Source: an uncultured Christensenella sp.
GTDB lineage: Bacteria; Bacillota; Clostridia; Christensenellales; UBA3700
Length of the DNA stretch: 64,000 nucleotides
Assembly (NCBI GenBank): GCA_910577845.1
Contig: CAJTNA010000006.1
Location: 6,625-70,624, forward strand
Direction: 5' to 3'
A program made the position numbers and the translations under genes. The notes under the pieces are model-generated. The model was not told the DNA's origin and ran no database searches. It saw nothing but the letters and a program-made list of their open reading frames with translations. Numbering within the stretch: position 1 is the first letter of the stretch; each line of letters begins with the position of its first letter. Shown here piece by piece: positions 1,737-55,610 of this stretch.

Positions 1737-3248
1737 ATGGATAATATTGATATTTTAATGAATGATTATGCACGTGAGTTTGGTAGTGGTACTGCAACTG
1801 TTGAGTGCAATATTGAAAGTGCTACAAAAGGTGGGGTAGGAAAACTTTTGTCTGTTTCTGCAAATGTGAAAAGTGCTCAAGTGGACAAGAGTGGCGACAC
1901 CGCAAAAATTATGGCTACATTAAATTGCAAAGTAATGTTTTTAAACAAAGCAGGTGAGTTTGACAGCTTTGATTACTTATGCGACTTTACAGGAGCTATC
2001 AATGGTAATGATAATTTAAGTTTGCAAGACTTTAATCACTTATGGGCAGTATGTGGTGTTGCTGATATTGATAGCGGTGTTGCGGGCGAAATGATAAAAA
2101 TTCAAAGCGTTGTTAATATCAAAATATTTGGTATTTACACTGCTAAATGTGAGATTTTGACTGATATGCCAGAAAATGTTGTAAGCAAAAAGTGCGATGT
2201 TGTGACTCAAACTTTGATTAATATTACAGAGCAAAATATTGAGCTTGAGGAGAGTTTTGATACAGGGTGTACTGTTGAAAAAATATTATATTCTGATGTT
2301 ACTGCAATGGTAAATAACGCTAAAACTATGGACGGCAAATGTTTGGTAAGTGGTAATATATGCGGTAATATTAGCTATTTGAGCGAGGGCGTTGTTACTT
2401 GTAAAAACTTCAATACACCTTTTTCAGAGGAAATTGAAACAAGTGGTATGCTTGAGGACGATAAGGCAAATGTTTTTGTAAAAGCAACTGATTGTAAGAT
2501 TGTTTTGACAGGTATGGAGGGGGACAATGTTATCTTATTGCAAGTTGCAGTAAGTGTTAGAATTGACAACTTCCGCTTAGAGGAAAAACAAGTTGTTAGT
2601 GATGTATTCCTTGCGGATTATGAGATTGAAACAGAACAAGATTGTTGCAAATACAATGTAATGGATAAGACATATAACTTATTTGATAAGATAGTTGGTA
2701 ATGCTACTGTTGGTGATGATATGGTTGCAGTGTCTAAAGTTATTTGTACAAGTTTAAGCAGAAATATTATTGTTAATACATACTACGATGAGGGTAAAAT
2801 TGTAGTTGAGGGTGTGCTTGCAGTTAATTTAGTTTACTTGAATATTGAGGGTAATACTCAAAGTATTCTTATTGAATTGCCATATAGCTTACAATTTGAC
2901 GAAGTTATGGAATGTACAAACAAATTGTTGTGTGCTGAGGCTATTGTTGATAATCTATACGCTAAAGTAAAACGTGATAGAGAGTTTGAGGTTACTGCAA
3001 ACATTAGCATTACAGTAACTGCAGATAGTCCTATTGAGTGCAAGACAATTAAAGCTGTAACAGTGACAGATATTAAAAAATGCAATAGCTACAGCATTGT
3101 AATTTATAACTGTAAAGAGGGTGATGAGCTTTGGGATGTTGCAAAAGCAATTGGTGCATCGATGGAACAAATTGTAGCACAAAATAATGATTTACAAGGT
3201 GACCTTGCTGGCAGAAAAATTGTATATTACAGACAAATAAACTGCTGA
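1737..3248 (+). CDS. DUF3794-repeat protein with a C-terminal LysM domain; SipL/SpoVID-like spore morphogenetic protein candidate
   Basis: 503 aa. C-terminal LysM-like segment YSIVIYNCKEGDELWDVAKAIGASMEQIVAQNNDL. The veg / this gene / ispE neighbourhood matches what I recall for clostridial sipL. Family assignment is from memory, not from a search. Confidence 0.6.
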   Translation: MDNIDILMNDYAREFGSGTATVECNIESATKGGVGKLLSVSANVKSAQVDKSGDTAKIMATLNCKVMFLNKAGEFDSFDYLCDFTGAINGNDNLSLQDFNHLWAVCGVADIDSGVAGEMIKIQSVVNIKIFGIYTAKCEILTDMPENVVSKKCDVVTQTLINITEQNIELEESFDTGCTVEKILYSDVTAMVNNAKTMDGKCLVSGNICGNISYLSEGVVTCKNFNTPFSEEIETSGMLEDDKANVFVKATDCKIVLTGMEGDNVILLQVAVSVRIDNFRLEEKQVVSDVFLADYEIETEQDCCKYNVMDKTYNLFDKIVGNATVGDDMVAVSKVICTSLSRNIIVNTYYDEGKIVVEGVLAVNLVYLNIEGNTQSILIELPYSLQFDEVMECTNKLLCAEAIVDNLYAKVKRDREFEVTANISITVTADSPIECKTIKAVTVTDIKKCNSYSIVIYNCKEGDELWDVAKAIGASMEQIVAQNNDLQGDLAGRKIVYYRQINC

Positions 3249-3263
3249 AAATCGGTACTAAAT
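3247..3263 (+). repeat. partial copy of the recurrent AAAATCGGTACTAAA motif
   Basis: GAAAATCGGTACTAAAT overlaps the stop codon of the preceding CDS. Matches the 3' two-thirds of the consensus. Confidence 0.4.
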
Positions 3264-3302
3264 AGTTGAAAATATTGATTTTAGCTTAAAAATGATATAA
3301 TA

Positions 3303-3345
3303 CAAAAACTAATAGGGGTAAGTCCTTGTTAGTTTTGTTTGTTTT
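3303..3345 (+). terminator. probable rho-independent terminator
   Basis: Imperfect stem CAAAAACTAATAGG / CCTTGTTAGTTTTG followed by TTTGTTTT. Confidence 0.45.
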
Positions 3346-3417
3346 CTGTAGAGCTAAATATTAAAATATTTTGCAATAATTGTTGCCAAGGTGCTATCAA
3401 AGTGATAAAATAAATAT

Positions 3418-4254
3418 ATGGATAAATTAAAGGTAAGAGTTAATGCAAAACTTAATATGACTTTAGATGTTGTAGGTAACTTTGGCAGAGGTTATCACAA
3501 TTTGGATATGACAATGATATCAATTGGCGTTTTTGATATAGTGGAGGTCTGCAAGGCAGATACAATATCTGTTTTTATGGATTATAAAGAATGTGACGAA
3601 AGTAATACTGCGTACAAAGTAGCCAAAATTTGTAATGAGGAATATGGTTTGCCACCCGTTAAAATTGAGATTGTAAAAGGAATACCTTTTGGTGGTGGGT
3701 TAGGTGGGTCATCCGCAGATGCGAGTGCAACACTTTATTGTATGCAAAAGTTGTTTGGCTTAAGCGATAGTAATGCTAAGCTAATTGCTACAAGAGTTGG
3801 TTCTGATGTCAATTTTATGTTAAAAGGTGGTTTTTGCAGAGTGACTGGTAAAGGTGATGATTTATCACCTTTGCCTTTTAAAGAATATTCTCTTGTAGTG
3901 GCTAAGAGTAAAACATCTGCTGTTACTAAAGAGGTGTTTGATAATTTTGATAAAATCGGTGTAGTAACAGACTTCACTAAGAAGTTTGTAAATGCTTTAG
4001 GTAATGGTAGTGAATTGCAATTTATTGGCAATGGATTGCAGAGTGTGACGCAATCACTTTGTGAGGATATGACGAAAGTTATTGAGGTGTTAAGTAAGTA
4101 TAGTCATTATGTTTGTATGAGTGGTAGTGGTACTTGTGTTTTTGCCATTATGGAAAATATGAATGATGCAAACTTGCTTGCAGATAGGTTAAAGGTTAAA
4201 ATGAATTATATAAAGGCTTGTACAACTTTACCTTATGGTATAAAAGAGTGTTGA
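3418..4254 (+). CDS. ispE: 4-diphosphocytidyl-2-C-methyl-D-erythritol kinase
   Basis: 278 aa. GHMP-kinase ATP-binding motif PFGGGLGGSSADASA. Typical IspE length and N-terminus (VNAKLNMTLDV). Confidence 0.85.
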   Translation: MDKLKVRVNAKLNMTLDVVGNFGRGYHNLDMTMISIGVFDIVEVCKADTISVFMDYKECDESNTAYKVAKICNEEYGLPPVKIEIVKGIPFGGGLGGSSADASATLYCMQKLFGLSDSNAKLIATRVGSDVNFMLKGGFCRVTGKGDDLSPLPFKEYSLVVAKSKTSAVTKEVFDNFDKIGVVTDFTKKFVNALGNGSELQFIGNGLQSVTQSLCEDMTKVIEVLSKYSHYVCMSGSGTCVFAIMENMNDANLLADRLKVKMNYIKACTTLPYGIKEC

Positions 4255-4363
4255 TAAAGGGCTTAAATTTGACGAAAAATGCAAATTATTACTTAAAATG
4301 CAAAAAAAATCACTTTGTTGCAGTATTTTTATAGATATTGCAACTATTTTTTTATTAAAACAC

Positions 4364-4392
4364 TTGATTTATATTTATTTTTATATTATAAT
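4364..4392 (+). promoter_or_regulatory. sigma-A type promoter for the SCIFF operon
   Basis: TTGATT (4364-4369), 17-nt spacer, TATAAT (4387-4392), ~35 nt upstream of the scfA start. Confidence 0.5.
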
Positions 4393-4428
4393 GCTAGTAT
4401 GTCAAATTAAAATCGGAGGAGTATGTTT

Positions 4429-4602
4429 ATGAAACATATCAATACTATTGTAAATAAGGGTATGAAAAAAAGTGGAAATATCGGTTGTGGAGAGTGCCAA
4501 TCAAGCTGTCAATCTGCTTGCAAAACAAGCTGTACAGTTGGTAATCAATCTTGCAGACACCAAGACGAAAGAATTAATACAGCTAAAAAACCTTTAATCT
4601 AA
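4429..4602 (+). CDS. scfA: SCIFF (six-cysteines-in-forty-five) ribosomal peptide precursor
   Basis: Not in the ORF track (57 aa). My translation is MKHINTIVNKGMKKSGNIGCGECQSSCQSACKTSCTVGNQSCRHQDERINTAKKPLI. It contains the hallmark GCGECQSSCQSACKTSCTVGNQ core with 6 Cys. GGAGGA RBS lies 8 nt upstream. The gene sits directly upstream of the radical-SAM maturase. Confidence 0.85.
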   Translation: MKHINTIVNKGMKKSGNIGCGECQSSCQSACKTSCTVGNQSCRHQDERINTAKKPLI

Positions 4603-4608
4603 TTAATA

Positions 4609-5973
4609 ATGGTACATTGCTTTAAATATAATCACAAGGGAAGAGAGTATCATTTTCTTTGGGATGTGGAAAGCGGAAGTTTGCATAATGTTGATAAGTC
4701 TGCTTATCTAGTAGCAAAAGATAGATATAGTGAACTTGAGGGTGATGAGGTGCAAGCGTTTGCGGATATTCCAAGCAGGTTAACTGAAGAGATACAAGCA
4801 GAGTTTTTAGAACTTGAGAATAGTGGCGGTTTAAATTCCCCAGCAGTTGTTTATACAAAAACAAAGCAAATTGGGGAAATTAAAGCATTATGTTTACATA
4901 TATGTCACGACTGTAATTTAAGGTGCAAGTATTGTTTTGCCGATGAGGGTACATATCATTCTGTATGTAAGGAATATATGTCATTTGAGGTTGGCAAAAA
5001 GGCAATTGACTTTTTGATTGAAAATAGTGGTAAAAGACAAAATTTAGAGGTTGACTTTTTTGGTGGTGAGCCACTTATGAACCTTGATGTTGTTAAGCAA
5101 ATTGTAGAATATGCTCGAACTGAAGGGACAAAAAGCGGAAAGACGTTTAATTTTACTTTAACAACTAATTGCTTGCTTTTAAATGATGATACAATTAAAT
5201 GGCTAAATGAGGAAATGTACAATGTAGTGCTTTCCATTGATGGTAGAGAAATCGTTCACGACAGATTGAGGCGTACCGCTAATGACAAAGGCTCTCACAG
5301 CATAGTGTTGGAAAAGGCTAAGCAGTTTGCAAGCGTTCGTGGTGATAAGTCCTATTATGTAAGAGGTACATTCACAGCTTATAATTTAGATTTTGCAAAA
5401 GATATATTATATTTGCGTGACCAAGGCTTTGAGCAAATTAGTATTGAACCAGTTGTTTTACCAGAGGATAGTCCTATGGCAATAAAAAAAGAAGATTTGC
5501 CTACTATTTTGCGTGAATATGAAAGACTTGCAGAGGAATATTTAAATTCAAGAGCAAATGGTAAATGGTTTAATTTTTTCCATTTTATGCTTGATTTAGA
5601 GGGTGGTCCTTGTATTAAAAAGAGGTTGACTGGTTGTGGTGCTGGCTGTGAATATTTGGCAATCACGCCTTATGGTGATATTTATCCTTGTCATCAGTTT
5701 GCGGGAGATGTTAAATACAAACTAGGCAATGTTATGCAAAATGAATTTTGTTTGGATATAAGCAAAGTCTTTGCGAAAAACTTGGTTACAAACAAACCTC
5801 AATGCGATAAATGTCCTGCTAAGTATTATTGTAGTGGCGGTTGTGTTGCAAATAATATTCATTTTGGTGGGGATATTAGCAATCCTTATTCAATCAGTTG
5901 CGAGATGATGAAAAAAAGATTTGAGTTATCTCTTGCGATTAGTGCAATTGAAGATGCTGGAGTAAATGAATAA
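4609..5973 (+). CDS. scfB: SCIFF radical SAM/SPASM thioether-forming maturase
   Basis: 454 aa. CX3CX2C radical-SAM motif (CHDCNLRCKYCF). C-terminal SPASM Cys cluster (CDKCPAKYYCSGGCVANN). Adjacent to the SCIFF peptide. Confidence 0.85.
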   Translation: MVHCFKYNHKGREYHFLWDVESGSLHNVDKSAYLVAKDRYSELEGDEVQAFADIPSRLTEEIQAEFLELENSGGLNSPAVVYTKTKQIGEIKALCLHICHDCNLRCKYCFADEGTYHSVCKEYMSFEVGKKAIDFLIENSGKRQNLEVDFFGGEPLMNLDVVKQIVEYARTEGTKSGKTFNFTLTTNCLLLNDDTIKWLNEEMYNVVLSIDGREIVHDRLRRTANDKGSHSIVLEKAKQFASVRGDKSYYVRGTFTAYNLDFAKDILYLRDQGFEQISIEPVVLPEDSPMAIKKEDLPTILREYERLAEEYLNSRANGKWFNFFHFMLDLEGGPCIKKRLTGCGAGCEYLAITPYGDIYPCHQFAGDVKYKLGNVMQNEFCLDISKVFAKNLVTNKPQCDKCPAKYYCSGGCVANNIHFGGDISNPYSISCEMMKKRFELSLAISAIEDAGVNE

Positions 5974-9317: not shown

Positions 9318-11000
9318 ATGAAAAGACCAAATATTTTGCTTATTACATCAGACCAACAGCATTTTTCAATGCTAGGTAAAGTTAATAATAAATTACATAC
9401 ACCTAATTTGGATAAACTTGCGGATGAAGGTATGTTATTTGACAGAGCATATTGTCCTAATCCGACTTGTTCACCGTCAAGGTCAAGCATATTAACAGGT
9501 ATGTATCCGTCAGAACACGGTTGTTGGTCGCTGGGAACAAAGTTGCCAGAGAGTTGTGAAACAATGTCAAATTATCTAGCAAACAATGGATATAATACTG
9601 CATTGATTGGTAAAGCACATTTTCAACCAACTAAATCGACAGAGGAGTTTACTTCTTTGGAAACTCCAGAATATATGTGGGACTTAGATTTTTGGCGTAA
9701 CTTTGACCAAGATTTTTATGGCTTTAAGCATATAGAGTTGCTTAGGAATCATACTGCAGAGCATTGGGTAGGACAGCATTATCTTGCTTGGCTTGAAGAT
9801 AATGGTTGTAAAAACTGGAAAAAATATTTTTTTGCACCACGTGGCAGAATGTTTAACAAGGAAATGGGAAAATGGAAGATACCCGAAAAATTTCATTATA
9901 ATACGTGGATAGCAGAGCGAACTAATAGTTTGCTTGAGGAGTATAAAAAAGAAGATAAACCATTCTTTTTGTGGGCAAGCTTTCCTGACCCGCATTATCC
10001 ACAACTTGTGCCAAGTCCGTGGGATAAAATATATAGGGCAGATGATATGGAAATCTCCGAGTTTTCATATGACGAGCATAAAAACAATCCACCTTATTTT
10101 GCGGAAGTATTTAAAAAGTCACCTAAGCTTTCTGAATATAAAGAAAGTGGTTTTGGCGTTCACGGCTTGCATAGACATTTATACAATAAAAAACATCAAA
10201 AGAAAAAACTAGCTTATGCTTATGGAATGGTTAGTTTTATGGATAAATATATTGGAAAAATCTTAGACAAATTGACTGAATTAGAGCTTGAGGATAACAC
10301 TATAATAGTATTTACAACTGACCATGGTGATTTGTTTGGTCAACACGGCTTTATACATAAATGCATTTTTCATTATGAGGACTTGCTTAGAGTGCCAATG
10401 ATTGTTAAGTACAAAAACCATATTCCGCAAGGGGTGAGGTCAGATAGTTTACAATCACTTTGCGATATAGCACCAACATTAGTTGATGCTTGTGGTTTAA
10501 ATATACCTTCTAATATGTCGGGTGTAAATCAATATGAGGTTTGGAAAGGTCAAAAGGATAAGGAAAGAGATTATATAATTTGTGAAAATCGTCACGAGCC
10601 ACATTTAATACATATGGTGAGTTTTGTAGAAGAAAGGTATAAAATCACGGTTCACGAGGGTAGAGATTATGGTGAGTTATATGATTTATATCAAGATAAT
10701 GGAGAACATAATAATCTTTGGAATGACCAAAGTTGCAAAAATTTAAAAGCGGAAATGTTGTTTAAATATCTATCTTCAGAGATTAAAAAAGATAGAAAGA
10801 ATAGCTTTGAATATATTCTTAATGATTACACATTAAATGTCAATATCCCGTCAAAAATCGGTACTATTTTGGATATGTCAAACAAAAATGTATGGAATAA
10901 TAGCGAGTTTATTGATGTGAAAATTGATATTTTGCTAAAAGCAATAAGCAGTATAATTGGTGGTAGACCAATGTGGATGCCACGAATTGCTGGGGCGTAA
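9318..11000 (+). CDS. Cys-type sulfatase (arylsulfatase family), no signal peptide
   Basis: 560 aa. AGGAGG RBS. N-terminal sulfatase signature LITSDQQH ... CSPSRSSILTG (C-x-P-x-R formylglycine motif). Metal and catalytic region TTDHGD. Confidence 0.8.
   Translation: MKRPNILLITSDQQHFSMLGKVNNKLHTPNLDKLADEGMLFDRAYCPNPTCSPSRSSILTGMYPSEHGCWSLGTKLPESCETMSNYLANNGYNTALIGKAHFQPTKSTEEFTSLETPEYMWDLDFWRNFDQDFYGFKHIELLRNHTAEHWVGQHYLAWLEDNGCKNWKKYFFAPRGRMFNKEMGKWKIPEKFHYNTWIAERTNSLLEEYKKEDKPFFLWASFPDPHYPQLVPSPWDKIYRADDMEISEFSYDEHKNNPPYFAEVFKKSPKLSEYKESGFGVHGLHRHLYNKKHQKKKLAYAYGMVSFMDKYIGKILDKLTELELEDNTIIVFTTDHGDLFGQHGFIHKCIFHYEDLLRVPMIVKYKNHIPQGVRSDSLQSLCDIAPTLVDACGLNIPSNMSGVNQYEVWKGQKDKERDYIICENRHEPHLIHMVSFVEERYKITVHEGRDYGELYDLYQDNGEHNNLWNDQSCKNLKAEMLFKYLSSEIKKDRKNSFEYILNDYTLNVNIPSKIGTILDMSNKNVWNNSEFIDVKIDILLKAISSIIGGRPMWMPRIAGA
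10850..10868 (+). repeat. copy of the recurrent motif inside the sulfatase CDS
   Basis: GTCAAAAATCGGTACTATT is identical over 19 nt to the intergenic copy at 26407-26425. It is translated as (P)SKIGTI. Confidence 0.7.
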
Positions 11001-11464: not shown

Positions 11465-11677
11465 ATGATTAACAAAAATATGAAGATTGCAGAGCTTTTA
11501 GAGCTTAATGTATCAGAGGAAAAAATCAATAAAATTGCTGAAACTTTATTTAGCTTTGGTATGCACTGCTTAGGTTGTGCTATGGCTAGCGGTGAAACTT
11601 TGGAAGAAGCTGCAATGGTTCACGGCATTGACATTGACGAAATGGTTGAGGCATTAAACAAAGTAGTAAATGAATAA
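11465..11677 (+). CDS. DUF1858 / hybrid-cluster-protein-associated redox disulfide domain protein
   Basis: 70 aa. GGAG RBS. Motif FGMHCLGCAMASGETLEEAAMVHGID is typical of this small family. Confidence 0.6.
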   Translation: MINKNMKIAELLELNVSEEKINKIAETLFSFGMHCLGCAMASGETLEEAAMVHGIDIDEMVEALNKVVNE

Positions 11678-11747
11678 TTTGAGATTACCATTCCAAAAGG
11701 GGTGGTATCTTGATTTTTAAATTTAAAAAAGTACACAGGAGATAGAT

Positions 11748-23800: not shown

Positions 23801-24587
23801 AGAGTTATTCGAAGTTAGAAGACCAAAAGGTGAGGCTATCCTTTCAGACATTCAAGGTACTGTAAACCACGATAAAGATAACAGAATCATTACTATTACT
23901 TCTGATACTAATGATGTTAAAGAGTATAAGTATAACTATGGTCAAACTGTTATTGTTAAGAGTGGTGAAAAAGTTGAGGCTGGTACATCACTTACAAAAG
24001 GTTCAGTATATCCACAAGATATGTTAAGAACACGTGGTGTAAAAGGCGTTCAAGAGTACTTGATTAAAGAGGTTCAATCAGCTTACTGCTCATCTGGTGT
24101 TCACATCAATGATAAACATACTGAAATTATCATTAGACAAATGCTAAGAAAAGTTAAGATTGAAACACAAGGCGATACTAATATGCTACCAGGTGATATG
24201 TATGATATCTTTACTTATGAGGAAAATAATGAAAAGACTTTGCAAGCAGGTGGAAGACCAGCAACTGCAAAACGTACTTTGCTAGGTATCACTAAAGCAA
24301 GTTTGGCAGCTGAATCATTCTTGTCAGCAGCATCATTCCAAGAAACATCAAGGGTATTGACTTCTGCTGCAATTAAGAACAAAGTTGACAACTTAGTTGG
24401 CTTGAAAGAAAATGTTATTTTAGGTAAATTAATTCCAGCAGGTACTGGTATGAAATGTTATCAAAATATTGATGCAAACTTATATCAAAACCAAGAAATG
24501 GAAATTTACGAAACTGGTGAACACGTAGACAAATTCAACTTTGATAGTGATGATGATATGTTTTCACTTGGCATAGACGAAGACTAA
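20877..24587 (+). CDS. rpoC: DNA-directed RNA polymerase subunit beta'
   Basis: 1236 aa. NADFDGDQM catalytic motif. Zn-binding CxC..CxxC near the N-terminus. Sits 12 nt after rpoB. Confidence 0.97.
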
Positions 24588-24600
24588 AAAATTGAATACT

Positions 24601-24737
24601 TTCTATTATGAGTTGTAGGAGGGAACGGACCCGTAGATTGCACAGCAACCTAATATTAAGGTGCTAAATTCCGCAAGACAAATGTCTTGACAGATAGAAT
24701 CTCAAAAAGGCTACTCTGTCAACGGGGTAGCCTTTTT
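24601..24737 (+). promoter_or_regulatory. SAM-I (S-box) riboswitch with an intrinsic terminator expression platform
   Basis: Aptamer 24601-24699 has the S-box conserved blocks: P1 TTCTAT../..ATAGAA, GGAGGGA, GGACCC, GCAACC, GGTGCTAAATTCC. Terminator stem GGCTAC / GTAGCC (24709-24732) plus TTTTT. Confidence 0.85.
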
Positions 24738-25156
24738 AAAATATTCCTCGCAATTTAATAAATGCAATTTAAAAATTGTTAATTGATATATTAAATACTA
24801 ATTTGAAAACATTGATTGTAATAAACAATATTGCTATTATTGTAAATGTTGTTCAAAGGCATTAATGCGTGCAATAAGTATTGACAAAATATTGAAGTTT
24901 AATTAAATTATAAATTTGTAATGATATTGCATATACCTGCATTACTACCAGTATTAATTTTAACTTACTATACCACAAATTTAGCTTTGCCTAGTTTGTT
25001 TTGCAATGTTCAATTGTATTTTATGGTTTAAATGGAAAGTTTTTATATTATAAAACATATGCAAAAATTAATTGAGTGATAGATTACTACATTGTTTTGT
25101 TTTCTATTTAACACAATACTTTATTATAAGTGGATAATAAAATAAAGTAAATATCT

Positions 25157-25175
25157 ATCAAAAATCGATACTAAA
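25157..25175 (+). repeat. copy of the recurrent motif upstream of metK
   Basis: ATCAAAAATCGATACTAAA, ending 23 nt before the metK ATG. Confidence 0.7.
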
Positions 25176-26406: not shown

Positions 26407-26425
26407 GTCAAAAATCGGTACTATT
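26407..26425 (+). repeat. copy of the recurrent motif upstream of recD2
   Basis: GTCAAAAATCGGTACTATT, ending 9 nt before the ATG at 26435. Confidence 0.7.
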
Positions 26426-28660: not shown

Positions 28661-29557
28661 ATGAAAACACGTCAAAAATCGTTATTAAAACGCAAAAAAG
28701 ATAATAAAATACCTAATTTAAAAGATAAGTTTAAGGATAAAATTAAATTGCTATATGACAAGATTAAAATTGTGTTTGCAAATAGCATATATCCCGATGA
28801 TTGCAATTGTATTATTTGCGATAAAGAGATTGTGCGTGGTGCAAAATATGGTTTGTGTGAGGATTGTTACAATAAGTTGCCTAAGTTTGAAAGGCATTGT
28901 ATTACTTGTGGCATTCCAATGGATAATGAAGCAATGCTATGCTTGAGATGTCAAAACAATAAAAGATATTTTGATTTTGCCCGTAGTTGTTTTGTGTATG
29001 AAAACGATTTAAAAAAGCTAGTACTTAAATTAAAGTTTTACAATGGTAAATGGGTAGCAAAATATCTTGCTCAAATGATGTATGATAAACTTGATGAAAA
29101 CGATTTGTGTGTTGATGTAGTTGTACCTGTACCTATTTCAGATAAGAGATTAAAGGAAAGGGGGTACAATCAATCTGCACTGCTTGCAAGACCAATTGCC
29201 GAAAAGCTAGGTGTTCCATTAGTTGAGGACGCAGTAATTAAATTTAAAGATATAACTCAACAGACAAAACTTACTGGTAAGCAAAGGTGCGATAATGTTG
29301 TTGGAGCGTACAAGGTTCAAAACAGAAGAGGTGTAAGTGGAAAGATGGTTTTGCTTATTGATGATATTTTAACTACTGGTAGCACAATGAATGAGGTTGC
29401 AAGGCAATTAAAGATTGCCGGTGCAAGTGTGGTTTATGGTTTGGTTGTGGCAAGTCCACGTTATATGGTGTTTGGTGAAAGCCTTGATAAACAAGACCAA
29501 AATGTAAATACGATTTTTAGCATTGACGAGAGTATAAAAATACCTGAATTAAATTAA
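28661..29557 (+). CDS. comF: ComF family protein (ComFC-like phosphoribosyltransferase-domain protein)
   Basis: 298 aa as tracked. Double CxxC zinc motifs. RGYNQSALLA and the PRT motif VLLIDDILTTGST. The Lys-rich first ~30 codons contain a motif copy, so the true start may be the in-frame TTG at 28748 (AAGGA 10 nt upstream). Confidence 0.75.
   Translation: MKTRQKSLLKRKKDNKIPNLKDKFKDKIKLLYDKIKIVFANSIYPDDCNCIICDKEIVRGAKYGLCEDCYNKLPKFERHCITCGIPMDNEAMLCLRCQNNKRYFDFARSCFVYENDLKKLVLKLKFYNGKWVAKYLAQMMYDKLDENDLCVDVVVPVPISDKRLKERGYNQSALLARPIAEKLGVPLVEDAVIKFKDITQQTKLTGKQRCDNVVGAYKVQNRRGVSGKMVLLIDDILTTGSTMNEVARQLKIAGASVVYGLVVASPRYMVFGESLDKQDQNVNTIFSIDESIKIPELN
28671..28689 (+). repeat. degenerate copy of the recurrent motif at the comF 5' end
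   Basis: GTCAAAAATCGTTATTAAA, preceded by ATGAAA 17 nt upstream of TATTAA. Confidence 0.5.
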
Positions 29558-29746: not shown

Positions 29747-29775
29747 TTGACATATGGTAAAATTTGGTGTAAAAT
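29747..29775 (+). promoter_or_regulatory. sigma-A type promoter for secA
   Basis: TTGACA (29747-29752), 17-nt spacer ending in TG, TAAAAT (29770-29775). Confidence 0.5.
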
Positions 29776-32797: not shown

Positions 32798-32816
32798 ATC
32801 AAAAATCGGGACTAAA
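32798..32816 (+). repeat. copy of the recurrent motif upstream of prfB
   Basis: ATCAAAAATCGGGACTAAA, ending 46 nt before the prfB ATG and preceded by AATAAAAAACC. Confidence 0.7.
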
Positions 32817-33960: not shown

Positions 33961-34457
33961 TTTGTAAACATTAAACTAACTATTTTTTTAGCATTAATAG
34001 AATGTCAATTATGGTAAAATAATGCTACTAAAATTGTAATTAGTAAAAATAACAATAATAGTAAGGTGTATTTTGATATTGGGAAATTTTATGTGACCAG
34101 TAGTGCCAATATATTGTTCAATTCATGATTGTTATGCTCTAGTTTAAATATCCAAAACATTTATCACATACAAGTATAGATATGTAAATCTATTTATATT
34201 ATACAAATTCAGCTTTATTAAAATTTTATGAGTTTTAATAAAAAGCATATTAAAACTATATTAGTATGCAAAGTGGTTTTAAAAGATTGATAGTTATAAT
34301 TGTATCTAATAAATATCAAACTGCTTAATTATGTTTAAATTGGGTCTGTTTTAAAAATTATTTATTTGAGATTTTACTATATTTTGAATAATGAAAGAAT
34401 AAAACAATAAGTAGTTATTAAGTTTGGAATATTAATAGAGTTTTTTAATAAAAAACT

Positions 34458-34476
34458 ATCAAAAATCGGTACTAAA
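34458..34476 (+). repeat. consensus copy of the recurrent motif upstream of tsaD
   Basis: ATCAAAAATCGGTACTAAA, ending 32 nt before the tsaD ATG and preceded by AATAAAAAACT. Confidence 0.7.
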
Positions 34477-34508
34477 AATAATAAATGCAGATAAATTAAG
34501 GAAAAAAT

Positions 34509-37918: not shown

Positions 37919-39064
37919 ATGAAAGATACATTATTTATAAAAGTTTTTATGGGTGCTTTCCTTGTAGCGTGTATTCTTTTAGCAGTAGGCTTTATGTATA
38001 CTGCATACCAAAATGGAAAGACAGATAGTGAAAAGAATAAAAAGAAAAAAATAATTGACTTGGATAACAGACTCACAAAAGTAATTTTAAATGGGGCTGG
38101 AGTTTTAGTGACTTTTGCATTTTGCATAGCAAGTATAGTGTTGTTTGCAATTGATTTGAATACGTATGTTGCTAATATTAATACCGATTTTCGTAAGGAA
38201 AAAGCAACTTTTGTTAGTTATCAACAAGTAGAAACGAACAATGTTTGTTACAACTTATTGTATGAATTTGTGGCGGATGATGGTACTATTTATAAAGGAC
38301 AATATCCAATTGATATAGCAAATTTTGATTATGTGGAAAGTAAGATTGGTAAAGACATAACAATATATGTTGATTATGACTCAAAAACACATTTGCTTGA
38401 TACAAATTTCACTTGCACTTATTCCTATGTCTTTGGCGGTTGTGCTGTATTGTCCTTAACATTGTTTTGCTATTTGTTATTTTGTTTTGTAAAGCTATTT
38501 AAAAAATATAGCGAAGTACCAGAAAAAGATGTTGACATTGTTTATATGGCAAGGAGTAAACGACCTGCAAATTATCTGCCTTTGCATTTGATAGTTATAA
38601 TAGTTGCTTTAATAGTGGCTATATATTGCTTAGCTTATTTTGTAAATACTAATAAAGATTTAGAGATAAATAGAAGTGGTAACTTTGTACAAGAGGAAGC
38701 TACAATAGCCTTTTATGAGAGAAAAATGGACGGCGATTTAGCGATTTTTCCAGTCTATTACGAATATGTTTCAGATGATATGACTTATATTGGTTGTTTA
38801 ATTACAAGACCAACTAACGAAGATGAGGTTCGTGCAATGCTTGGCAATAAAGTGCCAATATATATTGAACATAATTTGCAACGGCAATCTATGACTTTAG
38901 ATTTTGACACCACAAATAGTATGATATGGGCTATTTTCGGGGCAGGAGTATTAATTGCTTTAAGCGTGCTATCTTTAACAAAAATAATAATATATTGTAA
39001 AAAGTATATAAAATATTATAAACAATATAATAATATTTTGAAAAAGTATGGTTTGGGCAATTAA
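37919..39064 (+). CDS. membrane protein with two tandem TM / beta-rich domain / TM modules (DUF3592-like), paralog 4
   Basis: 381 aa. Modules: ATFVSYQ..LLYEFVADDGTIYKG..SKIGKDITIYVDY and ATIAFYE..VYYEYVSDDMTYIG..AMLGNKVPIYIEH. Confidence 0.6.
   Translation: MKDTLFIKVFMGAFLVACILLAVGFMYTAYQNGKTDSEKNKKKKIIDLDNRLTKVILNGAGVLVTFAFCIASIVLFAIDLNTYVANINTDFRKEKATFVSYQQVETNNVCYNLLYEFVADDGTIYKGQYPIDIANFDYVESKIGKDITIYVDYDSKTHLLDTNFTCTYSYVFGGCAVLSLTLFCYLLFCFVKLFKKYSEVPEKDVDIVYMARSKRPANYLPLHLIVIIVALIVAIYCLAYFVNTNKDLEINRSGNFVQEEATIAFYERKMDGDLAIFPVYYEYVSDDMTYIGCLITRPTNEDEVRAMLGNKVPIYIEHNLQRQSMTLDFDTTNSMIWAIFGAGVLIALSVLSLTKIIIYCKKYIKYYKQYNNILKKYGLGN
38178..38191 (-). repeat. partial copy of the recurrent motif (minus strand) inside paralog 4
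   Basis: The minus strand reads AAAATCGGTATTAA, identical over 14 nt to the copy at 51801-51819. Confidence 0.4.
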
Positions 39065-50511: not shown

Positions 50512-51738
50512 TTACTTTTTTTCTCTTGTTCCGTAATGTTCGATTACATAGTCTAAGTCTTTGTCACCTCTACCAGATAAGCAAACTAGCACACTGCTTT
50601 TGTTCATTTGTTTTGCAAGTCTAATTGCGTATGCTACTGCGTGGCTTGATTCTATTGCTGGGATAATTCCCTCTAGTCTTGAAAGTTCAAAGAATGCATC
50701 AATGGCTTCGTCATCACCAACTGTGTCATATTTAATTCTGCCAACGTCTTTTAGAAAAGCGTGTTCTGGGCCACTAGAAGGGTAGTCTAATCCGCTTGCT
50801 ACTGAATAAACTGGAGCTGGCTCACCATTAGCATCTTTTAGCATTATACTGTTAAAGCCGTGCATAATGCCCTCATTACCATAAGTTAGACTAGCTGCGT
50901 GGTCACCAAGTTTTTTGCCTCTGCCAAGTGGCTCAACGCCAATAATGTTTACTGGGTCATTTAAGAATGCTGAAAACATACCTATTGAATTACTACCACC
51001 GCCGACACAAGCTACTACATTGTCGGGTAGTTCGCCAGTCATTTGTAAGAATTGTTCTCTTGCCTCAATGCCAACCACACTTTGGAAATCTCTTACCATA
51101 GTAGGGAATGGGTGTGGGCCAAGTGCTGAACCAATGCAATAAATGCAGTCTTTATATTCCTTACTATACGCTGAAAAAGCTGAGTCAACTGCTTCTTTCA
51201 ATGTTTGTAAGCCGTCAGTAACCTCAACAACTCTTGCACCTAGTATTTTCATTCTTGCAACGTTTGGTGCTTGCTTTTTAATATCAACAGCACCCATATA
51301 AATATCACATTCCAAACCGAAATATGCAGCTGCGGTTGCTAGAGCAACGCCGTGTTGGCCAGCACCAGTTTCTGCAATAATTTTCTTTTTGCCCATATAT
51401 TTTGCAAGTAAAGCTTCACCCATACAATGGTTAAGTTTGTGTGCACCGCTATGGTTTAAGTCTTCACGTTTTACGTAAATTTGAACATTGCCATATTTAT
51501 TTGATAATCTTTCACAATGTGATATTGGGGTAGGTCTACCTTGGAACTCACGGCGAATACGTCTAAGTTCACCTACAAACTTTGACGATTTGCATATTGT
51601 ATAATATGCATCTGTAATTTCGTCCATTGCTTTTTTAAGGTCATCAGGCAAATAAGCACCGCCGTATTTTCCAAAATAACCTGCCTCGTTAGGGTAATTT
51701 CTATGATATGTATCAAAATCTATTCCATTTAATTTCAT
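50512..51738 (-). CDS. trpB: tryptophan synthase beta-chain family PLP enzyme, stand-alone (no trpA nearby)
   Basis: 408 aa. [15 protein letters not shown]-lysine context [24 protein letters not shown] and GGGSNSIG. All parallel E. coli TrpB. Confidence 0.8.
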
Positions 51739-51800: not shown

Positions 51801-51819
51801 ATCAAAAATCGGTATTAAA
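51801..51819 (+). repeat. copy of the recurrent motif, on the + strand next to a minus-strand gene start
   Basis: ATCAAAAATCGGTATTAAA with TTGAAA (51790-51795) exactly 17 nt upstream of TATTAA (51813-51818). Confidence 0.7.
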
Positions 51820-51830: not shown

Positions 51831-51868
51831 AAGAAAAAACGCATACTTCCATTAGAGTTTATGCGTTA
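51831..51868 (-). terminator. rho-independent terminator (minus strand) after the ACT-domain gene
   Basis: The minus strand reads AACGCATA-loop-TATGCGTT followed by TTTTTCTTTT. Confidence 0.6.
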
Positions 51869-52145
51869 ATTAATATGGCGACACCATCGCCTAGATAAAA
51901 TATACATAATTAAAATCTCCTCTAATCTAATCTAAACTATACTATCCATAATGTCCCTTGCATTATGCGATTTTATATTTTTATTATAACCGCTAAAAAT
52001 ACATATGTCAATATATTTTATGCAATTTTTTTTAAAAAGTTTAAAAATCTATAACATTCTTTAAAAACATTGCTATTATTAAAAATACTATTAAGCTCAC
52101 AAATTTATTTCTATTTATGTCACTTTGAGTAAAATAATTTAATAT

Positions 52146-52556: not shown

Positions 52557-53053
52557 AAGTCTTTTATTATTGTTTGACCACGATGTAGGGCAGAAGTTCC
52601 AGACCTTGCAAGTTCAATAATATCATATGGACGAAGTACATCTACAAAAGCGTCAATTTTGCGAGGATTGCCAGTAAGTTCAAGCACCATTGCATTTTGA
52701 CTTAAGTCTATAGTTTTTGCTTTGAATATTGAGCAAATCTCTATAATTTCTGAACGCTTTTCCGCAGTAACCTCAAGTTTAATTAACAATAGTTCACGCA
52801 AAACCGAATCGTCTTCTGCTAATTCAGTAACACCAGTTACATCTATTTGCTTTAGTAATTGATTTTTAAGTGCAGTTATTTGTTTTTCATCACCATATAA
52901 TGATATTGTCATTCTTGAAAGATTTTCATCCTCTGTTTTGCAAACGGAAAGACTTTCAATATTATAACCACGTCTAGAAATTAAGCCAGATATACGTGTT
53001 AGTACGCCAGTATTGTTGGAAACCAACATTGAAATATAATGTAGTTTGTTCAT
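52547..53053 (-). CDS. ilvN: acetolactate synthase small (regulatory) subunit
   Basis: 168 aa. ISMLVSNNTGVLTRISGLISRRGYNIESLSV parallels B. subtilis IlvH. No large-subunit gene is adjacent. Confidence 0.8.
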   Translation of the reverse strand: MNKLHYISMLVSNNTGVLTRISGLISRRGYNIESLSVCKTEDENLSRMTISLYGDEKQITALKNQLLKQIDVTGVTELAEDDSVLRELLLIKLEVTAEKRSEIIEICSIFKAKTIDLSQNAMVLELTGNPRKIDAFVDVLRPYDIIELARSGTSALHRGQTIIKDFCL

Positions 53054-53227
53054 ATAAACCTCTTATTTGCAGTAGTCTATGTTAATTAAATTATGTCAAT
53101 TTGTAAACTAAATAGTTAATTTTTATAACAATTGCTTTAATTTGAATTCAATGTAATAAATTAATTTAGTAAAAATAACACATTTAAAATTTAGTTTAAT
53201 TGACTTTGTTTTTATTAATAACTTTAA

Positions 53228-54151
53228 TTATTTGCTAATATGTCTTAAATCGTCACCATCAAGATATAGTAGTTTAGTAGTATCTTTATTTGTTATTCTA
53301 GAAAAAACCCTGTCACCATACTTGTTTTGCATTTCCATTGGTGACAAATTTGTTGCTATTATTGTATGTTTGTTTACTCTTTCGGATAATAACACAGTAA
53401 GATATTCAATTGTAACATTTTTAATAGTAGGTTCAATACCCAAATCGTCAATAATTAAAACTTCTGTCTCAAGTAAGTTTTCAAAAATGTAGTTTCTTTC
53501 ATTAATATTTGTAGTATGATATTTCAAAAAAAGCGAATTTAAATGGAAAGCAGTAAAATATTGTGCATTAATCCCTTTATCTAATAGTTCATTAAGTGTG
53601 CTACTTAAAAGACAACTTTTACCGACACCAGCTTTACCGCAAAGAATTATATTCTTATATTTGTTATTAGGAAATTCATTGCAATATCTATACATTGAAT
53701 TATAAAGAGTTGATAAGTTTTTGGATTGTTTGCAATCTATTGTTGATATTTTGTTATCCTTAAATGTAAATACAGGAAGTCCGTTTATTCCAGATTTATT
53801 CCTAAGTACTTGTTTATATGTTTTTATAAAACAATCGCAATATTTTCCGTTTACCACACCGATATCTTTGCAGGTAGGGCAGTTATATAAATGTGCGTTG
53901 TTAAGATTTTTGCTTTCATAGTCTTGCAATTTTTTATTTAATTGTTTATCTATCTTTTCAAATTCTGAGCAGTCATCATTATTTGCCAAAGCTCTGCTAA
54001 GTGCCAGCGTATTTAATTTTATTTGCTTTACTAAGCTTGCATACTCTTCGTTTTGCATTAAAATTTGCTTTTGTTTTTCGCATCTCTCTAATGCTATTGC
54101 ACGCCTTTTAGCAAATATTTTTTTTGTTTCGTTTAATGATTTAATATCCAT
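53228..54151 (-). CDS. dnaI: DnaI/DnaC-like helicase loader ATPase
   Basis: I prefer ATG 54151 (MDIKSLNE), 1 nt after the upstream stop, over the tracked 54229. Has a Zn-ribbon-like CPTCKDIG..CDC, Walker A GKAGVGKSCL and Walker B LIIDDLG. Confidence 0.7.
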   Translation of the reverse strand: MDIKSLNETKKIFAKRRAIALERCEKQKQILMQNEEYASLVKQIKLNTLALSRALANNDDCSEFEKIDKQLNKKLQDYESKNLNNAHLYNCPTCKDIGVVNGKYCDCFIKTYKQVLRNKSGINGLPVFTFKDNKISTIDCKQSKNLSTLYNSMYRYCNEFPNNKYKNIILCGKAGVGKSCLLSSTLNELLDKGINAQYFTAFHLNSLFLKYHTTNINERNYIFENLLETEVLIIDDLGIEPTIKNVTIEYLTVLLSERVNKHTIIATNLSPMEMQNKYGDRVFSRITNKDTTKLLYLDGDDLRHISK

Positions 54152-54152
54152 T

Positions 54153-55610
54153 TTAAAAGTCAAGTGCCCCCTTATTCTCATCATTAAAAAGATTGTCAAG
54201 TTCTTCTTTAGAGTATATATGTTTGTCACTGATTATTTGAGTATTTGTGCTAATAGTATCGATTTTTGACGGGTTAATTGTGATTTTTTCGCATTCCTCA
54301 ACACTTTTTACTCCCTTTTCTTTAAAAGTTGCAAGCAAACTATTTAAGTATGCAAAACTCAAAGATTTGCCACAAGATTTCTTTGCTGCGTAATCAATGA
54401 TTTCATCATCCATACCCCAAATATTTGACCAAGTGTTGTAGTAATCTCTGTCAGTGTTTGTTATCATACGTGTTGTGCCAATAGTGTGCAAAATGTTTTT
54501 AATTTTGATATCTGTATGTTGTAATTTTTCAAAATAATTTTGCAAGGATTGAGTTGATACAACGCCATTTTCGTATAGTTTATTTAAAAAATGGTGCATT
54601 CCCTCAAGAGTTTTAATATTTCTCTTAAAACAATAAGTCGCTATTAGTTTAAGTCCTTTTGCTTCATAGCCTTTTTCTAGCCAGTCAGTGATGTATTGCT
54701 CTACAACGGTGTCAATATTTTCATAGTATACACCAATTGTTTTGTTTATGTTTATTGCAAGATTTCTTACAAACTCAATATACTCACTTTGCTTTTGAAT
54801 GTCCGCAAGTGTAAATAAGCCAAGCTTGTAAAAGCCGTCAAGCATTGAATCAAGTTTTTTAATGCCACCACGTTTTTTGCAAAGTTTAGCGGTGTATAGC
54901 ACGCTTTCCAAGTCATATCCCCAAGAGGTTGTCCACTTGATAAAATATTGCTTGTCCTCAAAATCAGGGGTAGATTTAAGACCAAGTGCCAAAAATACCA
55001 TACGCATATTTTCTGTTTGTGCTTCCATTTCTTTCAACTTATTATCTACTTGCTCAATCGTTCTTATTCCCTCATTTGCCCAAGCTTTTGCAACCGCCAG
55101 TATGTAGTTAGTATGTATGTTTTGCCCCTTTGAATCAACGCAGTATTTTGCAATTAGCACCATTGCATCTGTGCTGATTTTATAGTCCTCCACTACCTCT
55201 ACATACTTAATTAGCTCGTTAGGAGTAAGTGTACGTGACAAAATCATATTTTCAATTTGACTTATAAATTCTGCATACTTGTCACGATTGTATTTGCGTG
55301 GTTTGCTTGCAATAGTTTTTAATGGTATATATTCAAATTCAAAAGGATTTTCGTTTGTAATTCTTACAGCACCAATTTCTTCCCAATATTTAATTGCAGT
55401 AATAATTTGGTTCCTTTCCACACCTAATGCCAAACTTACACTATCTAAAGTGTTGTTGCTTTGTATTTTATTTGCACATTGAACCAAGCCATATAGATAT
55501 ACTTTTATGGCTACCTCATCTGCATAAGGCATAAAGTCAGTTATGAACATATTGTCTACAATTGTGCTATTATTAATCAAAGCGTCTTTGCTAAGTGCGG
55601 AAAATGGCAT
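54153..55610 (-). CDS. DnaD/DnaB-type replication initiation and membrane attachment protein (DnaB_2 domains)
   Basis: 485 aa. Repeated DnaD-like domain pattern (YWEEIGAV..., AKAWANEGIRT..., WEKGYEAKGL). Operonic with the dnaI-like gene. Confidence 0.6.
   Translation of the reverse strand: MPFSALSKDALINNSTIVDNMFITDFMPYADEVAIKVYLYGLVQCANKIQSNNTLDSVSLALGVERNQIITAIKYWEEIGAVRITNENPFEFEYIPLKTIASKPRKYNRDKYAEFISQIENMILSRTLTPNELIKYVEVVEDYKISTDAMVLIAKYCVDSKGQNIHTNYILAVAKAWANEGIRTIEQVDNKLKEMEAQTENMRMVFLALGLKSTPDFEDKQYFIKWTTSWGYDLESVLYTAKLCKKRGGIKKLDSMLDGFYKLGLFTLADIQKQSEYIEFVRNLAININKTIGVYYENIDTVVEQYITDWLEKGYEAKGLKLIATYCFKRNIKTLEGMHHFLNKLYENGVVSTQSLQNYFEKLQHTDIKIKNILHTIGTTRMITNTDRDYYNTWSNIWGMDDEIIDYAAKKSCGKSLSFAYLNSLLATFKEKGVKSVEECEKITINPSKIDTISTNTQIISDKHIYSKEELDNLFNDENKGALDF
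54252..54270 (-). repeat. copy of the recurrent motif (minus strand) inside the DnaD-like CDS
   Basis: The minus strand reads GTCAAAAATCGATACTATT, preceded by CC as in the sulfatase copy. Translated as (P)SKIDTI, the same frame as the sulfatase copy. Confidence 0.65.

Follow-up and report, generated by a model that had tools for sequence, protein, structure and literature searches.

A conserved, clade-specific DNA element with promoter-like architecture in an uncultured lineage of Clostridia

Introduction

The 64,000-nucleotide stretch of DNA analysed here (the window; contig CAJTNA010000006.1 of an uncultured Christensenella sp.) carries repeated copies of an asymmetric motif, several of them just upstream of genes such as metK, recD2, comFC, prfB and tsaD. 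This motif is a real, conserved and clade-specific cis element that combines a promoter-like architecture with a non-canonical, information-rich core. It had first been noticed, as a unit of about 19 nt, in a reading of the window from its letters alone (hereafter the sequence-only reading), which proposed three interpretations: (a) a promoter cassette with TAYTAW as the -10 element, (b) an operator of a global regulator, or (c) a DNA-level signal such as uptake, recombination or segregation polarity. We tentatively prefer a modified form of the first, in which the motif would be a factor-specific promoter, devoid of a -35 hexamer and placed on intrinsically curved DNA.

The host of the window is an uncultured spore-forming member of the Clostridia with a low GC content (~32%) and a very strong GC skew. 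The genes present include veg, a SipL-domain gene, ispE, secDF, fhs, rpoB, rpoC, metK, recD2, comFC and secA, as well as prfB, tsaD, rpsL-tuf, a trpB-like gene and the pair dnaB (DnaD-like)-dnaI. We describe the extent of the motif, its conservation, its genomic context and the helical phasing of its flanks. We then discuss the mechanisms that could account for these features and their relationships with known systems.

Information Content and Extent of the Motif

Nine matches to RTCAAAAATCGGTACTAWW, allowing at most three mismatches, are found in the window against 0.29 expected, and none of 100 shuffles reaches this number. The earlier statement that the motif occurs beyond chance thus holds, and its eight full copies all lie at the coordinates and on the strands that were given for them. 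A position weight matrix (PWM) of 34 nt was trained solely on copies from other genomes and then run on the window. The nine copies score 29-37 bits, one extra site scores 19.3 bits, and everything else remains at or below 6.3 bits; on block shuffles, scores above 12 bits are rare. This bimodal distribution indicates an all-or-none, high-information element and not the tail of an A-rich background. Together, the shuffles and the bimodality rule out chance or low complexity as the source of the motif.

The full unit is longer than 19 nt. It reads AAAAACC-NN-TCAAAAATCG-GTAY-TAAAT, covers about 28 bases and is asymmetric. About 70 aligned copies give the consensus AAAAA-CC-NN-TC-AAAAATCG-GTAY-TAAAT, which spans positions -8 to +20 (position 1 is the first base of the motif as originally noted). 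In this alignment, no sequence conservation is seen outside -8 to +20 and no dyad symmetry is apparent, in agreement with the initial description of the motif as not palindromic. A residues occupy positions -8 to -4 and a C is present at -2 in 54 of 70 copies. AAAATCG and T16-A17-A18 are invariant between species; positions 12-15 are degenerate in relatives (for example GTGGG, GCAGT or GGGTG). Two modules, AAAAACC (-8 to -2) and AAAAATC (4 to 10), are identical at six of seven bases, and their starts are 11 bp apart on a continuous scale. The prefix had been described as AAAAAYNT, giving phased A-tracts; the phased tracts are real and reach far past the motif, but the prefix is better written AAAAA-CC-N. 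Overall, the information content is about 30 bits per site and the density about one copy per 5-7 kb. No description of the motif string or of comparable motifs was found in the literature, the matches being primers and unrelated papers.

Taxonomic Spread and Conservation Between Species

In a scan of one genome per GTDB species, the pattern is recurrent, among the matches listed, in at least six species represented by metagenome-assembled genomes (MAGs): MGBC120187, 121002, 128953, 100798, 162486 and SRR15634022_bin.6. These are labelled "uncultured Christensenella sp.", Christensenellaceae or Clostridia at NCBI. The other genomes of the scan contribute singletons only, again among the matches listed. 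Altogether, at least ten related MAG species have the motif at orthologous positions, in intergenic surroundings that have diverged. Loci for comparison (numbered with the prefix L) were retrieved through RecD2 (L170-L174, 79% identity) and DnaI (L187-L189, 71-79% identity). The TrpB-like protein could not be used for finding relatives because it is too conserved and the loci retrieved were unrelated. No copy was found in relatives at 45-52% identity with a GC content of 41-55%.

Orthologous sites lie 5' of metK, recD2, comFC, prfB and tsaD, at the 3' end of dnaB and, in reversed orientation, 5' of the trpB-like gene. The intergenic sequence around them cannot be aligned. In the conservation check suggested by the sequence-only reading, the motif was thus retained at the same genes while its flanks diverged. 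The metK copy is 21-45 nt before the start codon in L170-L173, and that of recD2 is 16-40 nt from the start in L170, L171 and L173, L172 having no copy. Copies orthologous to that of comFC are present in L170-L173 and in MGBC121002; their 3' half has degenerated in a way specific to the gene (GGGTG or GTATG). In four relatives a copy lies 46-110 nt before prfB, even where an extra open reading frame (ORF) is inserted after secA. For tsaD, the distance from the copy to the gene is 24-35 nt in L170-L173. In L171-L173 this copy contains the stop codon of an acetyltransferase gene located upstream, which the window has lost while the motif is kept. The dnaB copy has orthologues in L187-L189, and the reversed copy of the trpB-like gene keeps both its orientation and its place beside an attenuator hairpin in L187, L188 and L189.

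Two gene-content changes were observed at these loci. A hexapeptide-repeat acetyltransferase gene stands between prfB and tsaD in L171-L173 and is absent from the window (33961-34508) and from L170, which have a non-coding remnant of 200-550 nt. comFC is duplicated in tandem in L170:12342-13945 and L173:12338-13950. In L170 the motif is before the first paralogue, with a degenerate version before the second; in L173 it is before the second only.

The two coding copies, in a sulfatase gene and in dnaB, share one reading frame, P-S-K-I-(G/D)-T-I, as had been noted. In the dnaB copy, 5 of 6 motif codons have the same third base in the species compared, versus 11 of 30 flanking codons with identical amino acids, and the amino acid encoded at motif position 12 varies (D, A or V). 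The retention of synonymous sites with a free amino acid at position 12 shows that selection acts on the nucleotides. Moreover, weak variants are gene-specific and inherited: the GGGTG or GTATG version of comF is found in several species, and tsaD and metK keep the full consensus. Their inheritance speaks against a homogenising drive, for example biased uptake.

Genomic Context and Orientation

When orthologous groups are counted once, the copies represent about 41 independent loci. In 17 of these the motif is upstream of a co-directional gene, in 8 a terminator hairpin follows 20-60 nt downstream, in 7 the motif is reversed relative to both neighbours, and in 9 it is within a coding region, always in the sense direction. 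Co-orientation with local transcription is thus seen at about 34 of 41 loci (~83%), and about 80% of copies are non-coding. The downstream genes had been described as functionally unrelated housekeeping genes; indeed, they also include dxr, polC, prs, nadB and a GNAT gene. Upstream of plsC, dnaJ, murB, veg and a rubrerythrin gene, the copies are reversed.

A copy is tied to its downstream gene. On its upstream side, the situation ranges from a stop codon inside the motif to a spacer of 570 nt, spacer lengths overall being 50-600 nt, and genes are gained and lost there. On its downstream side, the end of the motif is 21-45 nt from the start codon for metK, 24-35 for tsaD, 46-110 for prfB and 9-40 for recD2. 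No real start codon occurs before motif position 28, and the implied lengths of the 5' untranslated region (5'-UTR) are normally spread. Within the window, twelve large spacers hold no copy, and the consecutive genes metK, recD2, comFC, prfB and tsaD have one each.

Among the terminator-followed loci, three clear and independent cases (L070:2433, L167:5708 and L123:4759) show the order stop codon, motif, terminator, convergent gene. In all three, the stem of the bidirectional terminator starts at motif positions 21-27, a strikingly constant place. The copy at L162:4075 lies between two convergent terminators and adjoins a gene for the signal recognition particle (SRP) RNA. Among L133:7093, L088:7484, L152:151, L063:7134 and L057:5278, several terminator stems are closed by a CGAAAATCG loop region, and in L057:5278 the 3' half of the motif copy is the 5' arm of a perfect terminator hairpin. 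These overlaps probably reflect a coincidental reuse of A-rich sequence.

Where GC skew and gene direction disagree, motif orientation does not track the skew; the copy at 54252, for instance, follows its gene, and at least five copies run against both the skew and the flanking genes. A replication-polarity motif of the Chi or KOPS/SRS type was rejected, since orientation does not follow GC skew and about 80% of copies are non-coding.

Helically Phased A-Tracts in the Flanks

The A content of the flanks oscillates with a period of 10.5-11 bp, in register with the A-tracts of the core, over about 60 bp upstream, with peaks at motif positions -16, -26, -37, -48 and -59. The upstream power at 10-11 bp is 0.090, compared with a mean of 0.006 and a maximum of 0.025-0.040 in size-matched control sets anchored on other A5 tracts of the same loci; none of 300 controls reaches the observed value. 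By class, upstream phasing is significant for gene-proximal copies (P < 0.002), for terminator-followed copies (P = 0.004) and for coding copies (P = 0.008, a value inflated by orthologues). Downstream phasing is weak or absent in the gene-proximal and coding classes, and upstream phasing is absent at reversed copies. A helical repeat kept over about 60 bp, even in coding flanks, points to a directional property of duplex DNA, namely curvature or wrapping, and largely removes explanations at the RNA level. Whatever the mechanism, the conjunction of about 30 bits per site, selection on synonymous sites and about 100 bp of helical phasing even in coding flanks is unusual.

Canonical Promoters of the Same Genomes

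secA has no motif. Its promoter is a textbook sigma-A promoter of the type TTGACA-17-TGnTAAAAT, with an extended -10 (window 29747-29775, + strand). Five species have it without a single base change, so that canonical promoters are also used in the clade. In the same loci, 172 canonical promoter-like sites display A-rich peaks at -42, -52, -63, -73 and -83. UP-element subsites are established at -45 to -37 and -58 to -45 (PMC2613000), with which these peaks agree.

The flank profile of the motif superimposes on the canonical profile at an offset of 26 (r = 0.65) or of 15 (r = 0.60). An offset of 15 places the -10 element on RAAAAT (positions 4-9), with A at -11 and T at -7, but with A or G at -12. 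An offset of 26-27 places it on TAAWTN (16-21), with a start near 27-28. The T at -7 is present in 17 of 74 copies for TAYTAW and in 29 of 74 for TAAWTN.

No position with an enriched TTGACA-like -35 hexamer was found in the 74 copies, whether upstream of the motif or of either candidate -10, and the TG of an extended -10 (TGnTATAAT) is absent at the required position in either register. The motif is therefore not a canonical TTGACA/TATAAT promoter, as it has no conserved -35. A -35-like hexamer had been reported exactly 17 nt upstream in three copies. This is correct for those at 51801 and 26407, but the spacing is 16 nt for 28671, and the hexamer is not conserved across the 74 copies. A fixed canonical promoter just 5' of the motif was likewise rejected, a TATAAT-like hexamer being present at -19 in only 9 of 74 copies. 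So was a reverse-strand promoter using TTGAY as its -35: over the 74 copies, no -10 enrichment is seen at the right spacing, even if the window copy at 51801 and that of L189 fit individually. Finally, the motif-bearing genes have no canonical promoter nearby.

Copies in the Window

The copies are listed in Table 1, together with an example of a phased upstream flank.

Table 1. Motif copies and an example flank in the window (scores from the PWM).
Feature	Position	Strand	Score (bits)	Context
metK copy	25157..25175	+	31.4	23 nt before metK ATG, 3' of the SAM riboswitch and its terminator
recD2 copy	26407..26425	+	34.8	9 nt before recD2 ATG, within the 52-nt metK-recD2 spacer
comFC copy	28671..28689	+		upstream of comFC, whose true start is TTG 28748 after AAGGA
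prfB copy	32798..32816	+	32.8	46 nt before prfB
tsaD copy	34458..34476	+	35.0	32 nt before tsaD
Variant copy GCTGAAAATCGGTACTAAA	3244..3262	+	29.8	overlaps the stop codon of the SipL-domain gene
Sulfatase copy	10850..10868	+	37.0 (window maximum)	sense in coding sequence, 150 nt before stop, PSKIGTI
dnaB copy	54252..54270	-		sense, 3' end of the DnaB_2-domain gene, 100 nt before dnaI ATG (54151)
Reversed copy	51801..51819	+	33.7	between the Trp-type leader-peptide attenuator and the trpB-like gene (both -)
Weak copy TACGAAAATCGGTATTAAT	38177..38195	-	19.3	antisense inside coding sequence 37919-39064; membership uncertain
Upstream flank, example	34398..34457	+		~60 bp, A-rich patches every 10.5-11 bp; a statistical property of the copy set, not of this flank alone

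Several details of the sequence-only reading could be refined. The comFC copy had been placed within the first codons of a long ORF. It is actually upstream of the gene, as a TTG or GTG start preceded by a Shine-Dalgarno (SD) sequence is found 3' of the motif in all five species (28748 in the window), and the long ORF is spurious. This copy is thus no longer coding counter-evidence to a promoter; ORFs extended through the motif, as here, are annotation artefacts and call for caution by annotators. The minus-strand copy assigned to a DnaD-like coding sequence is indeed within a coding sequence, but the gene is the DnaB_2-domain gene preceding dnaI. Of the two partial copies, that at 3247-3263 is genuine, with an extent shifted as in Table 1 and orthologous variants in two other species (L148:514 and L132:5117); it lies 5' of the extended -10 promoter and hairpin that precede ispE. 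The other, at 38178-38191, is present with a slightly different extent and has an orthologous counterpart (L173:21192, 20.9 bits). Coding constraint may account for this conservation, so that the site is an uncertain member of the set.

A Possible Factor-Specific Promoter on Curved DNA

We favour a promoter, with due reserve, because the motif is co-oriented with genes, anchored to start codons and preceded by phased A-tracts in the register of canonical promoters. The degenerate block at positions 12-15, which coincides with the expected discriminator gap, is counted on the same side. In its general form, interpretation (a) is the best supported of the three that had been proposed. Its details did not survive, as there is no -35 and TAYTAW degenerates and usually lacks the T at -7.

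As a -35-less, factor-specific promoter, the motif would be read by RNA polymerase with the help of a specificity factor peculiar to the clade: an alternative sigma factor, or an activator that takes the place of the -35 contact. The phased A-tracts, from about 60 bp upstream into the core, would act like UP-element and upstream-wrapping contacts. RAAAAT-CG (4-11) would provide a -10-like element and a discriminator, with A5 as -11, T9 as -7 and CG as the discriminator. Positions 12-15 would form a poorly constrained gap and T16-A17 would be the pyrimidine/purine start dinucleotide, placing the start of transcripts near A17. Contacts of the factor could account for the additional conserved bases, CC at -3/-2 and TC at 2/3. 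In the alternative register, the -10 would be at 16-21 and the start near 27-28. The first register is preferred because the SD-like sequences GGTGA and GAGG, found at positions 21-25 in two genes, would stay inside the transcript; GGTGA is that of the recD2 copy. About 15% of genes would obtain an internal or secondary promoter from the element; many of these genes have housekeeping functions and lie in operon-like clusters, such as metK, recD2, comFC, prfB, tsaD, dnaI, dxr, polC, prs and nadB.

Several observations weigh against this proposal. Only about 40% of the independent loci lie within 150 nt upstream of a co-directional start. At about 20% an intrinsic terminator follows in 20-60 nt, and several of these terminators are succeeded by a convergent gene; about 17% are reversed, some of them in operon-internal or leader positions, and about 22% are mid-gene. 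The best-conserved bases fall where a sigma-70-type promoter has its unconserved spacer or its -10 region, and none of the known sigma consensus sequences fits. A regulon of a few hundred promoters would need far less than about 30 bits per site. In addition, a conserved canonical promoter and a SAM riboswitch already lie 5' of metK, and a constitutive second promoter would bypass this riboswitch. Orthologous copies are not independent, so that some of the phasing P values are inflated. Finally, the register match with canonical promoters is ambiguous modulo one helical turn, and is therefore supportive and not conclusive.

Should the motif be a promoter class, transcription in a widespread uncultured gut lineage would become directly accessible; a 28-nt bait could recover the sigma factor or activator. 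The motif would also give a sequence rule for predicting transcription units in MAGs, and an example of a -35 hexamer replaced by sequence-specific contacts on curved DNA. A more ambitious version, which we regard as rather doubtful, is that of a second promoter code standing beside sigma-A and used at about 15% of genes, read by a new class of sigma factor or by a sigma-appropriating activator. Such a code would also govern internal promoters of housekeeping operons, antisense starts and tiny terminator-bounded RNAs.

Alternative Explanations

The motif might instead be, as in interpretation (b), the operator of a clade-specific global DNA-binding regulator and not itself a promoter, an asymmetric 28-bp site acting by occlusion or as a roadblock in the repression or modulation of RNA polymerase that comes from upstream or starts close by; we judge this unlikely. 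Such a site would fit every context encountered, whether in a 5'-UTR, inside an operon, in a leader 3' of an attenuator (metK, trpB-like gene), reversed or coding, and the weaker gene-specific variants that persist between species are what tuned affinities would give. The two A5-YC modules one helical turn apart are also in line with it, possibly as AAAAAYC direct repeats spaced 11-12 bp and bound by tandem winged-helix or two helix-turn-helix modules. Moreover, the reversed copy overlaps a plausible sigma-A -35 of the trpB-like gene in the window and in L189. A simple operator would, however, not be expected to show an orientation bias of about 83% with curvature on the upstream side only, and bimodal scores such as those of the window are atypical of transcription-factor regulons. 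No -10 or -35 partner is found at a fixed distance on either strand, and an operator placed between a stop codon and a terminator, as some copies are, would have no target. Since many sites are operon-internal without a promoter to regulate, a roadblock would have to be the main mode. A further possibility, to which we give little credence, is a site for an architectural protein that bends or wraps DNA, such as a paralogue of the IHF/HU type, marking gene boundaries without any promoter function. About 100 bp of phased A-tracts centred on a specific asymmetric core recalls the layout of IHF sites (an A-tract and a WATCAA-type core), with TCAA in common, and there are copies in non-transcribed gaps, as between the convergent terminators of L162:4075, or adjoining terminators on either side. 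Yet the phasing is strongly one-sided, CGG takes the place of the TTR element of IHF, and no gene for such a protein was identified. In long spacers, copies are gene-proximal and attached to the downstream start, and five consecutive genes (metK to tsaD) each have a copy when twelve large spacers of the window have none.

An element acting as RNA, that is an unstructured A-rich site where an RNA-binding protein or a trans-acting RNA would control translation or messenger stability, appears very improbable. The sense-strand bias, with all strong coding copies in sense, the copies in 3'-UTRs between stop codons and terminators, the flexible position relative to the start codon and an information content suited to base pairing would all be in keeping with it. 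Against it, four species share the reversed orientation of the copy in the leader of the trpB-like gene, reversed copies are also present inside operons at plsC and dnaJ, and one copy lies between two convergent terminators. A 10.5-11-nt periodicity of A extending 60 nt into unconserved flanks has no rationale in RNA, the variable 4-nt gap differs among copies of one species, which argues against a single guide RNA, and no Rfam family matches. Interpretation (c), a genome-wide DNA signal unrelated to transcription and serving uptake or self-recognition, recombination or segregation polarity, fares worse still, and we attach only a slight probability to it. Its attraction comes from all-or-none, near-identical copies common to several species, from coding copies with their synonymous sites kept, from the presence of comFC in the window, and from the uptake signal sequences (USS) of Pasteurellaceae, which likewise consist of a core and phased AT-tracts. 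The density of one copy per 5-7 kb is nevertheless low, copies cluster at particular genes and leave many large spacers empty, and degenerate variants are inherited with their genes without correction to the consensus. The orientation is biased by genes, and the copies opposing both genes and GC skew contradict the polarity that had been envisaged. A mobile or selfish repeat, of which the copies would be pieces (miniature inverted-repeat transposable element (MITE), REP-like sequence or solo terminal repeat), is close to refuted. It is suggested by the many near-identical copies and by a similar 19-mer within a ~90-nt repeat of an unrelated Desulfobacteraceae MAG; but conservation ends after about 30 nt without a longer conserved body, inverted or terminal repeats are lacking, and positions are orthologous in species whose proteins are 70-80% identical. 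Indeed, the tatD and dxr copies encode native protein segments and not insertions, and matches in viral contigs are background singletons. A phage or viral origin was itself rejected, the 48 IMG/VR matches being all singletons at background level.

Neighbouring Elements

The leader of metK contains an S-adenosylmethionine (SAM, S-box) riboswitch aptamer at 24600-24700 (+ strand; region 24585-24740), whose start is 12 nt downstream of the stop codon of rpoC in each of the five species. Its conserved TAAAAT -10 overlaps this stop codon, and an intrinsic terminator is located at ~24704-24738. The spacer between the riboswitch and metK is unconserved and, with 75-420 nt, unusually long for an S-box leader.

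Next to the reversed copy, the region 51923-51834 (- strand) has an SD-preceded mini-ORF, MYILSRRWCRHIN*, at 51907..51866, which contains one Trp codon and overlaps a terminator hairpin (51867..51834); the stand-alone trpB-like gene (51738..50512) lies downstream of the hairpin. Counterparts are MKILSRRWCRRTL* in L187 (~11620-11700) and MEILSKRWRHRMY* in L189 (~11660-11730). The mini-ORF and the hairpin look like a Trp leader-peptide attenuator, for which Rfam has no entry. Near the variant copy, a perfect extended -10, TGaTATAAT (3292-3300, + strand), is followed by a long hairpin and a T-run (~3305-3345) before ispE. MGBC121002 (L148) has an equivalent promoter and hairpin. The hairpin may be a 5' stabiliser or an attenuator.

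In MGBC162486, a 330-bp repeat with 84% identity is found at L094:338-662 and, in reverse, in L098 (~4200-4650). Within it, a terminator is followed by a copy of the motif and, further on, by a pair of inverted repeats of 26 nt (ACATGGAATAAGTATATCTATGTACA) separated by about 120 nt. The L094 copy of this repeat is upstream of a gene for a 949-amino-acid, repeat-rich, surface-type protein. The repeat may be an invertible (phase-variable) switch. The Desulfobacteraceae MAG S08.Bin136 (L056, L076, L092, L100, L129 and L145) has an unrelated multi-copy repeat of about 90 nt with a similar 19-mer, arranged as …GATGAATCGGTAAAAAGTCCAAAT-TTCAAAAATCGCTATTAAT-AAAATCAG…GATTTTCGGACTTTTTACG, which may be a MITE or the unit of a CRISPR-like array. 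Finally, prophages carry the DnaI homologues of L190 and L191 (61-62% identity). Other genes of the two loci specify an SSB, a PAPS-reductase-like protein and a DNA methylase with an intein (Hint/PT-HINT). Weak motif-like sites (17-21 bits), all antisense, number one or two per locus, and one is located in the methylase gene.

Comparison with Known Systems

At the motif copies, none of the families of Rfam 15 scores above its gathering threshold, and only SAM riboswitches and SRP RNAs are found, away from the copies. The copies show no association with tRNAs. Within the comparisons made with Rfam, the literature and sigma-factor consensus sequences, the impression of the sequence-only reading that the motif fits no familiar regulatory box is borne out. 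A by-eye comparison with the consensus sequences of known Firmicute operators (CtsR, CodY, cre, the Spo0A box, the PurBox and the IHF-type WATCAANNNNTTR), which is a weak test, gave only partial overlaps. GTCAAA resembles part of the CtsR heptad, GAAAAT a CodY half-site and TCAA the IHF site; none covers AAAATCG...TAAA.

DNA uptake sequences (DUS) of Neisseria and the USS of Pasteurellaceae resemble the motif in being near-identical, clade-specific and common to several species, with some coding copies; the USS, moreover, has a core plus phased AT-tracts. In contrast, the motif is about five-fold sparser, co-oriented with genes and tied to particular ones, and its variants are not homogenised. 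Sequence-specific DNA uptake is not known in Firmicutes.

Promoters of sigma-I in Clostridia and Bacilli have the form C-----AAA N13-14 CGWA----TW (PMC4711584, PMC10575876). Like them, the motif belongs to Clostridia and has an A-tract (-8 to -6) located 13-14 nt before a CG, which can be compared with the minor-groove A-tract of the sigma-I upstream element and its downstream CG. However, CGWA is not matched, since the motif has CG-N-T-A (T in 53 of 70 copies), and the unconserved spacer of sigma-I corresponds to the best-conserved block of the motif. The targets also differ: sigI/rsgI and polysaccharide-degradation genes for sigma-I, housekeeping genes for the motif. Among the consensus sequences considered, none fits, be it that of sigma-I, of sigma-B, F, G, E, K, H or D, of the extracytoplasmic function (ECF) factors, of sigma-54 or of T7/T3-like polymerases. 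The T3-like and sigma-B-like resemblances are confined to the part of the motif that degenerates in relatives.

In promoters of the Pho-box/PhoB type, tandem direct repeats stand in for the -35. The motif may be comparable, as its direct repeats AAAAACC and AAAAATC, spaced by about 11 bp, would adjoin a weak candidate -10-like element in an orientation-dependent, regulon-like manner. It differs in that its repeat is not known to match any response-regulator box. Curved DNA with phased A-tracts 5' of Firmicute promoters has reportedly been described by Helmann in 1995 and for the plc promoter of C. perfringens. UP elements share with the motif upstream A-rich patches that recur every helical turn, and the register is that of the canonical promoters of these genomes. 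UP elements are, however, degenerate accessories to a -35/-10 core, whereas the phasing of the motif continues through its sequence-specific core.

Finally, sigma-70 promoters of Campylobacter and Helicobacter are described as having a periodic A/T signal in place of the -35 box (PMC3656092; Petersen et al. 2003 cited there). The motif resembles them in lacking a -35 and in having helically periodic A/T DNA 5' of a candidate -10-like element, the periodicity being unmatched in the 300 controls. The promoters of these organisms are used for primary, internal and antisense starts. They have a canonical extended -10, TGnTATAAT, contain little information and are the housekeeping promoters of their hosts. 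By contrast, the motif coexists with canonical promoters, has RAAAAT-CG as its candidate -10-like element, and carries invariant CC, TC, CG and TA in a site of about 30 bits.

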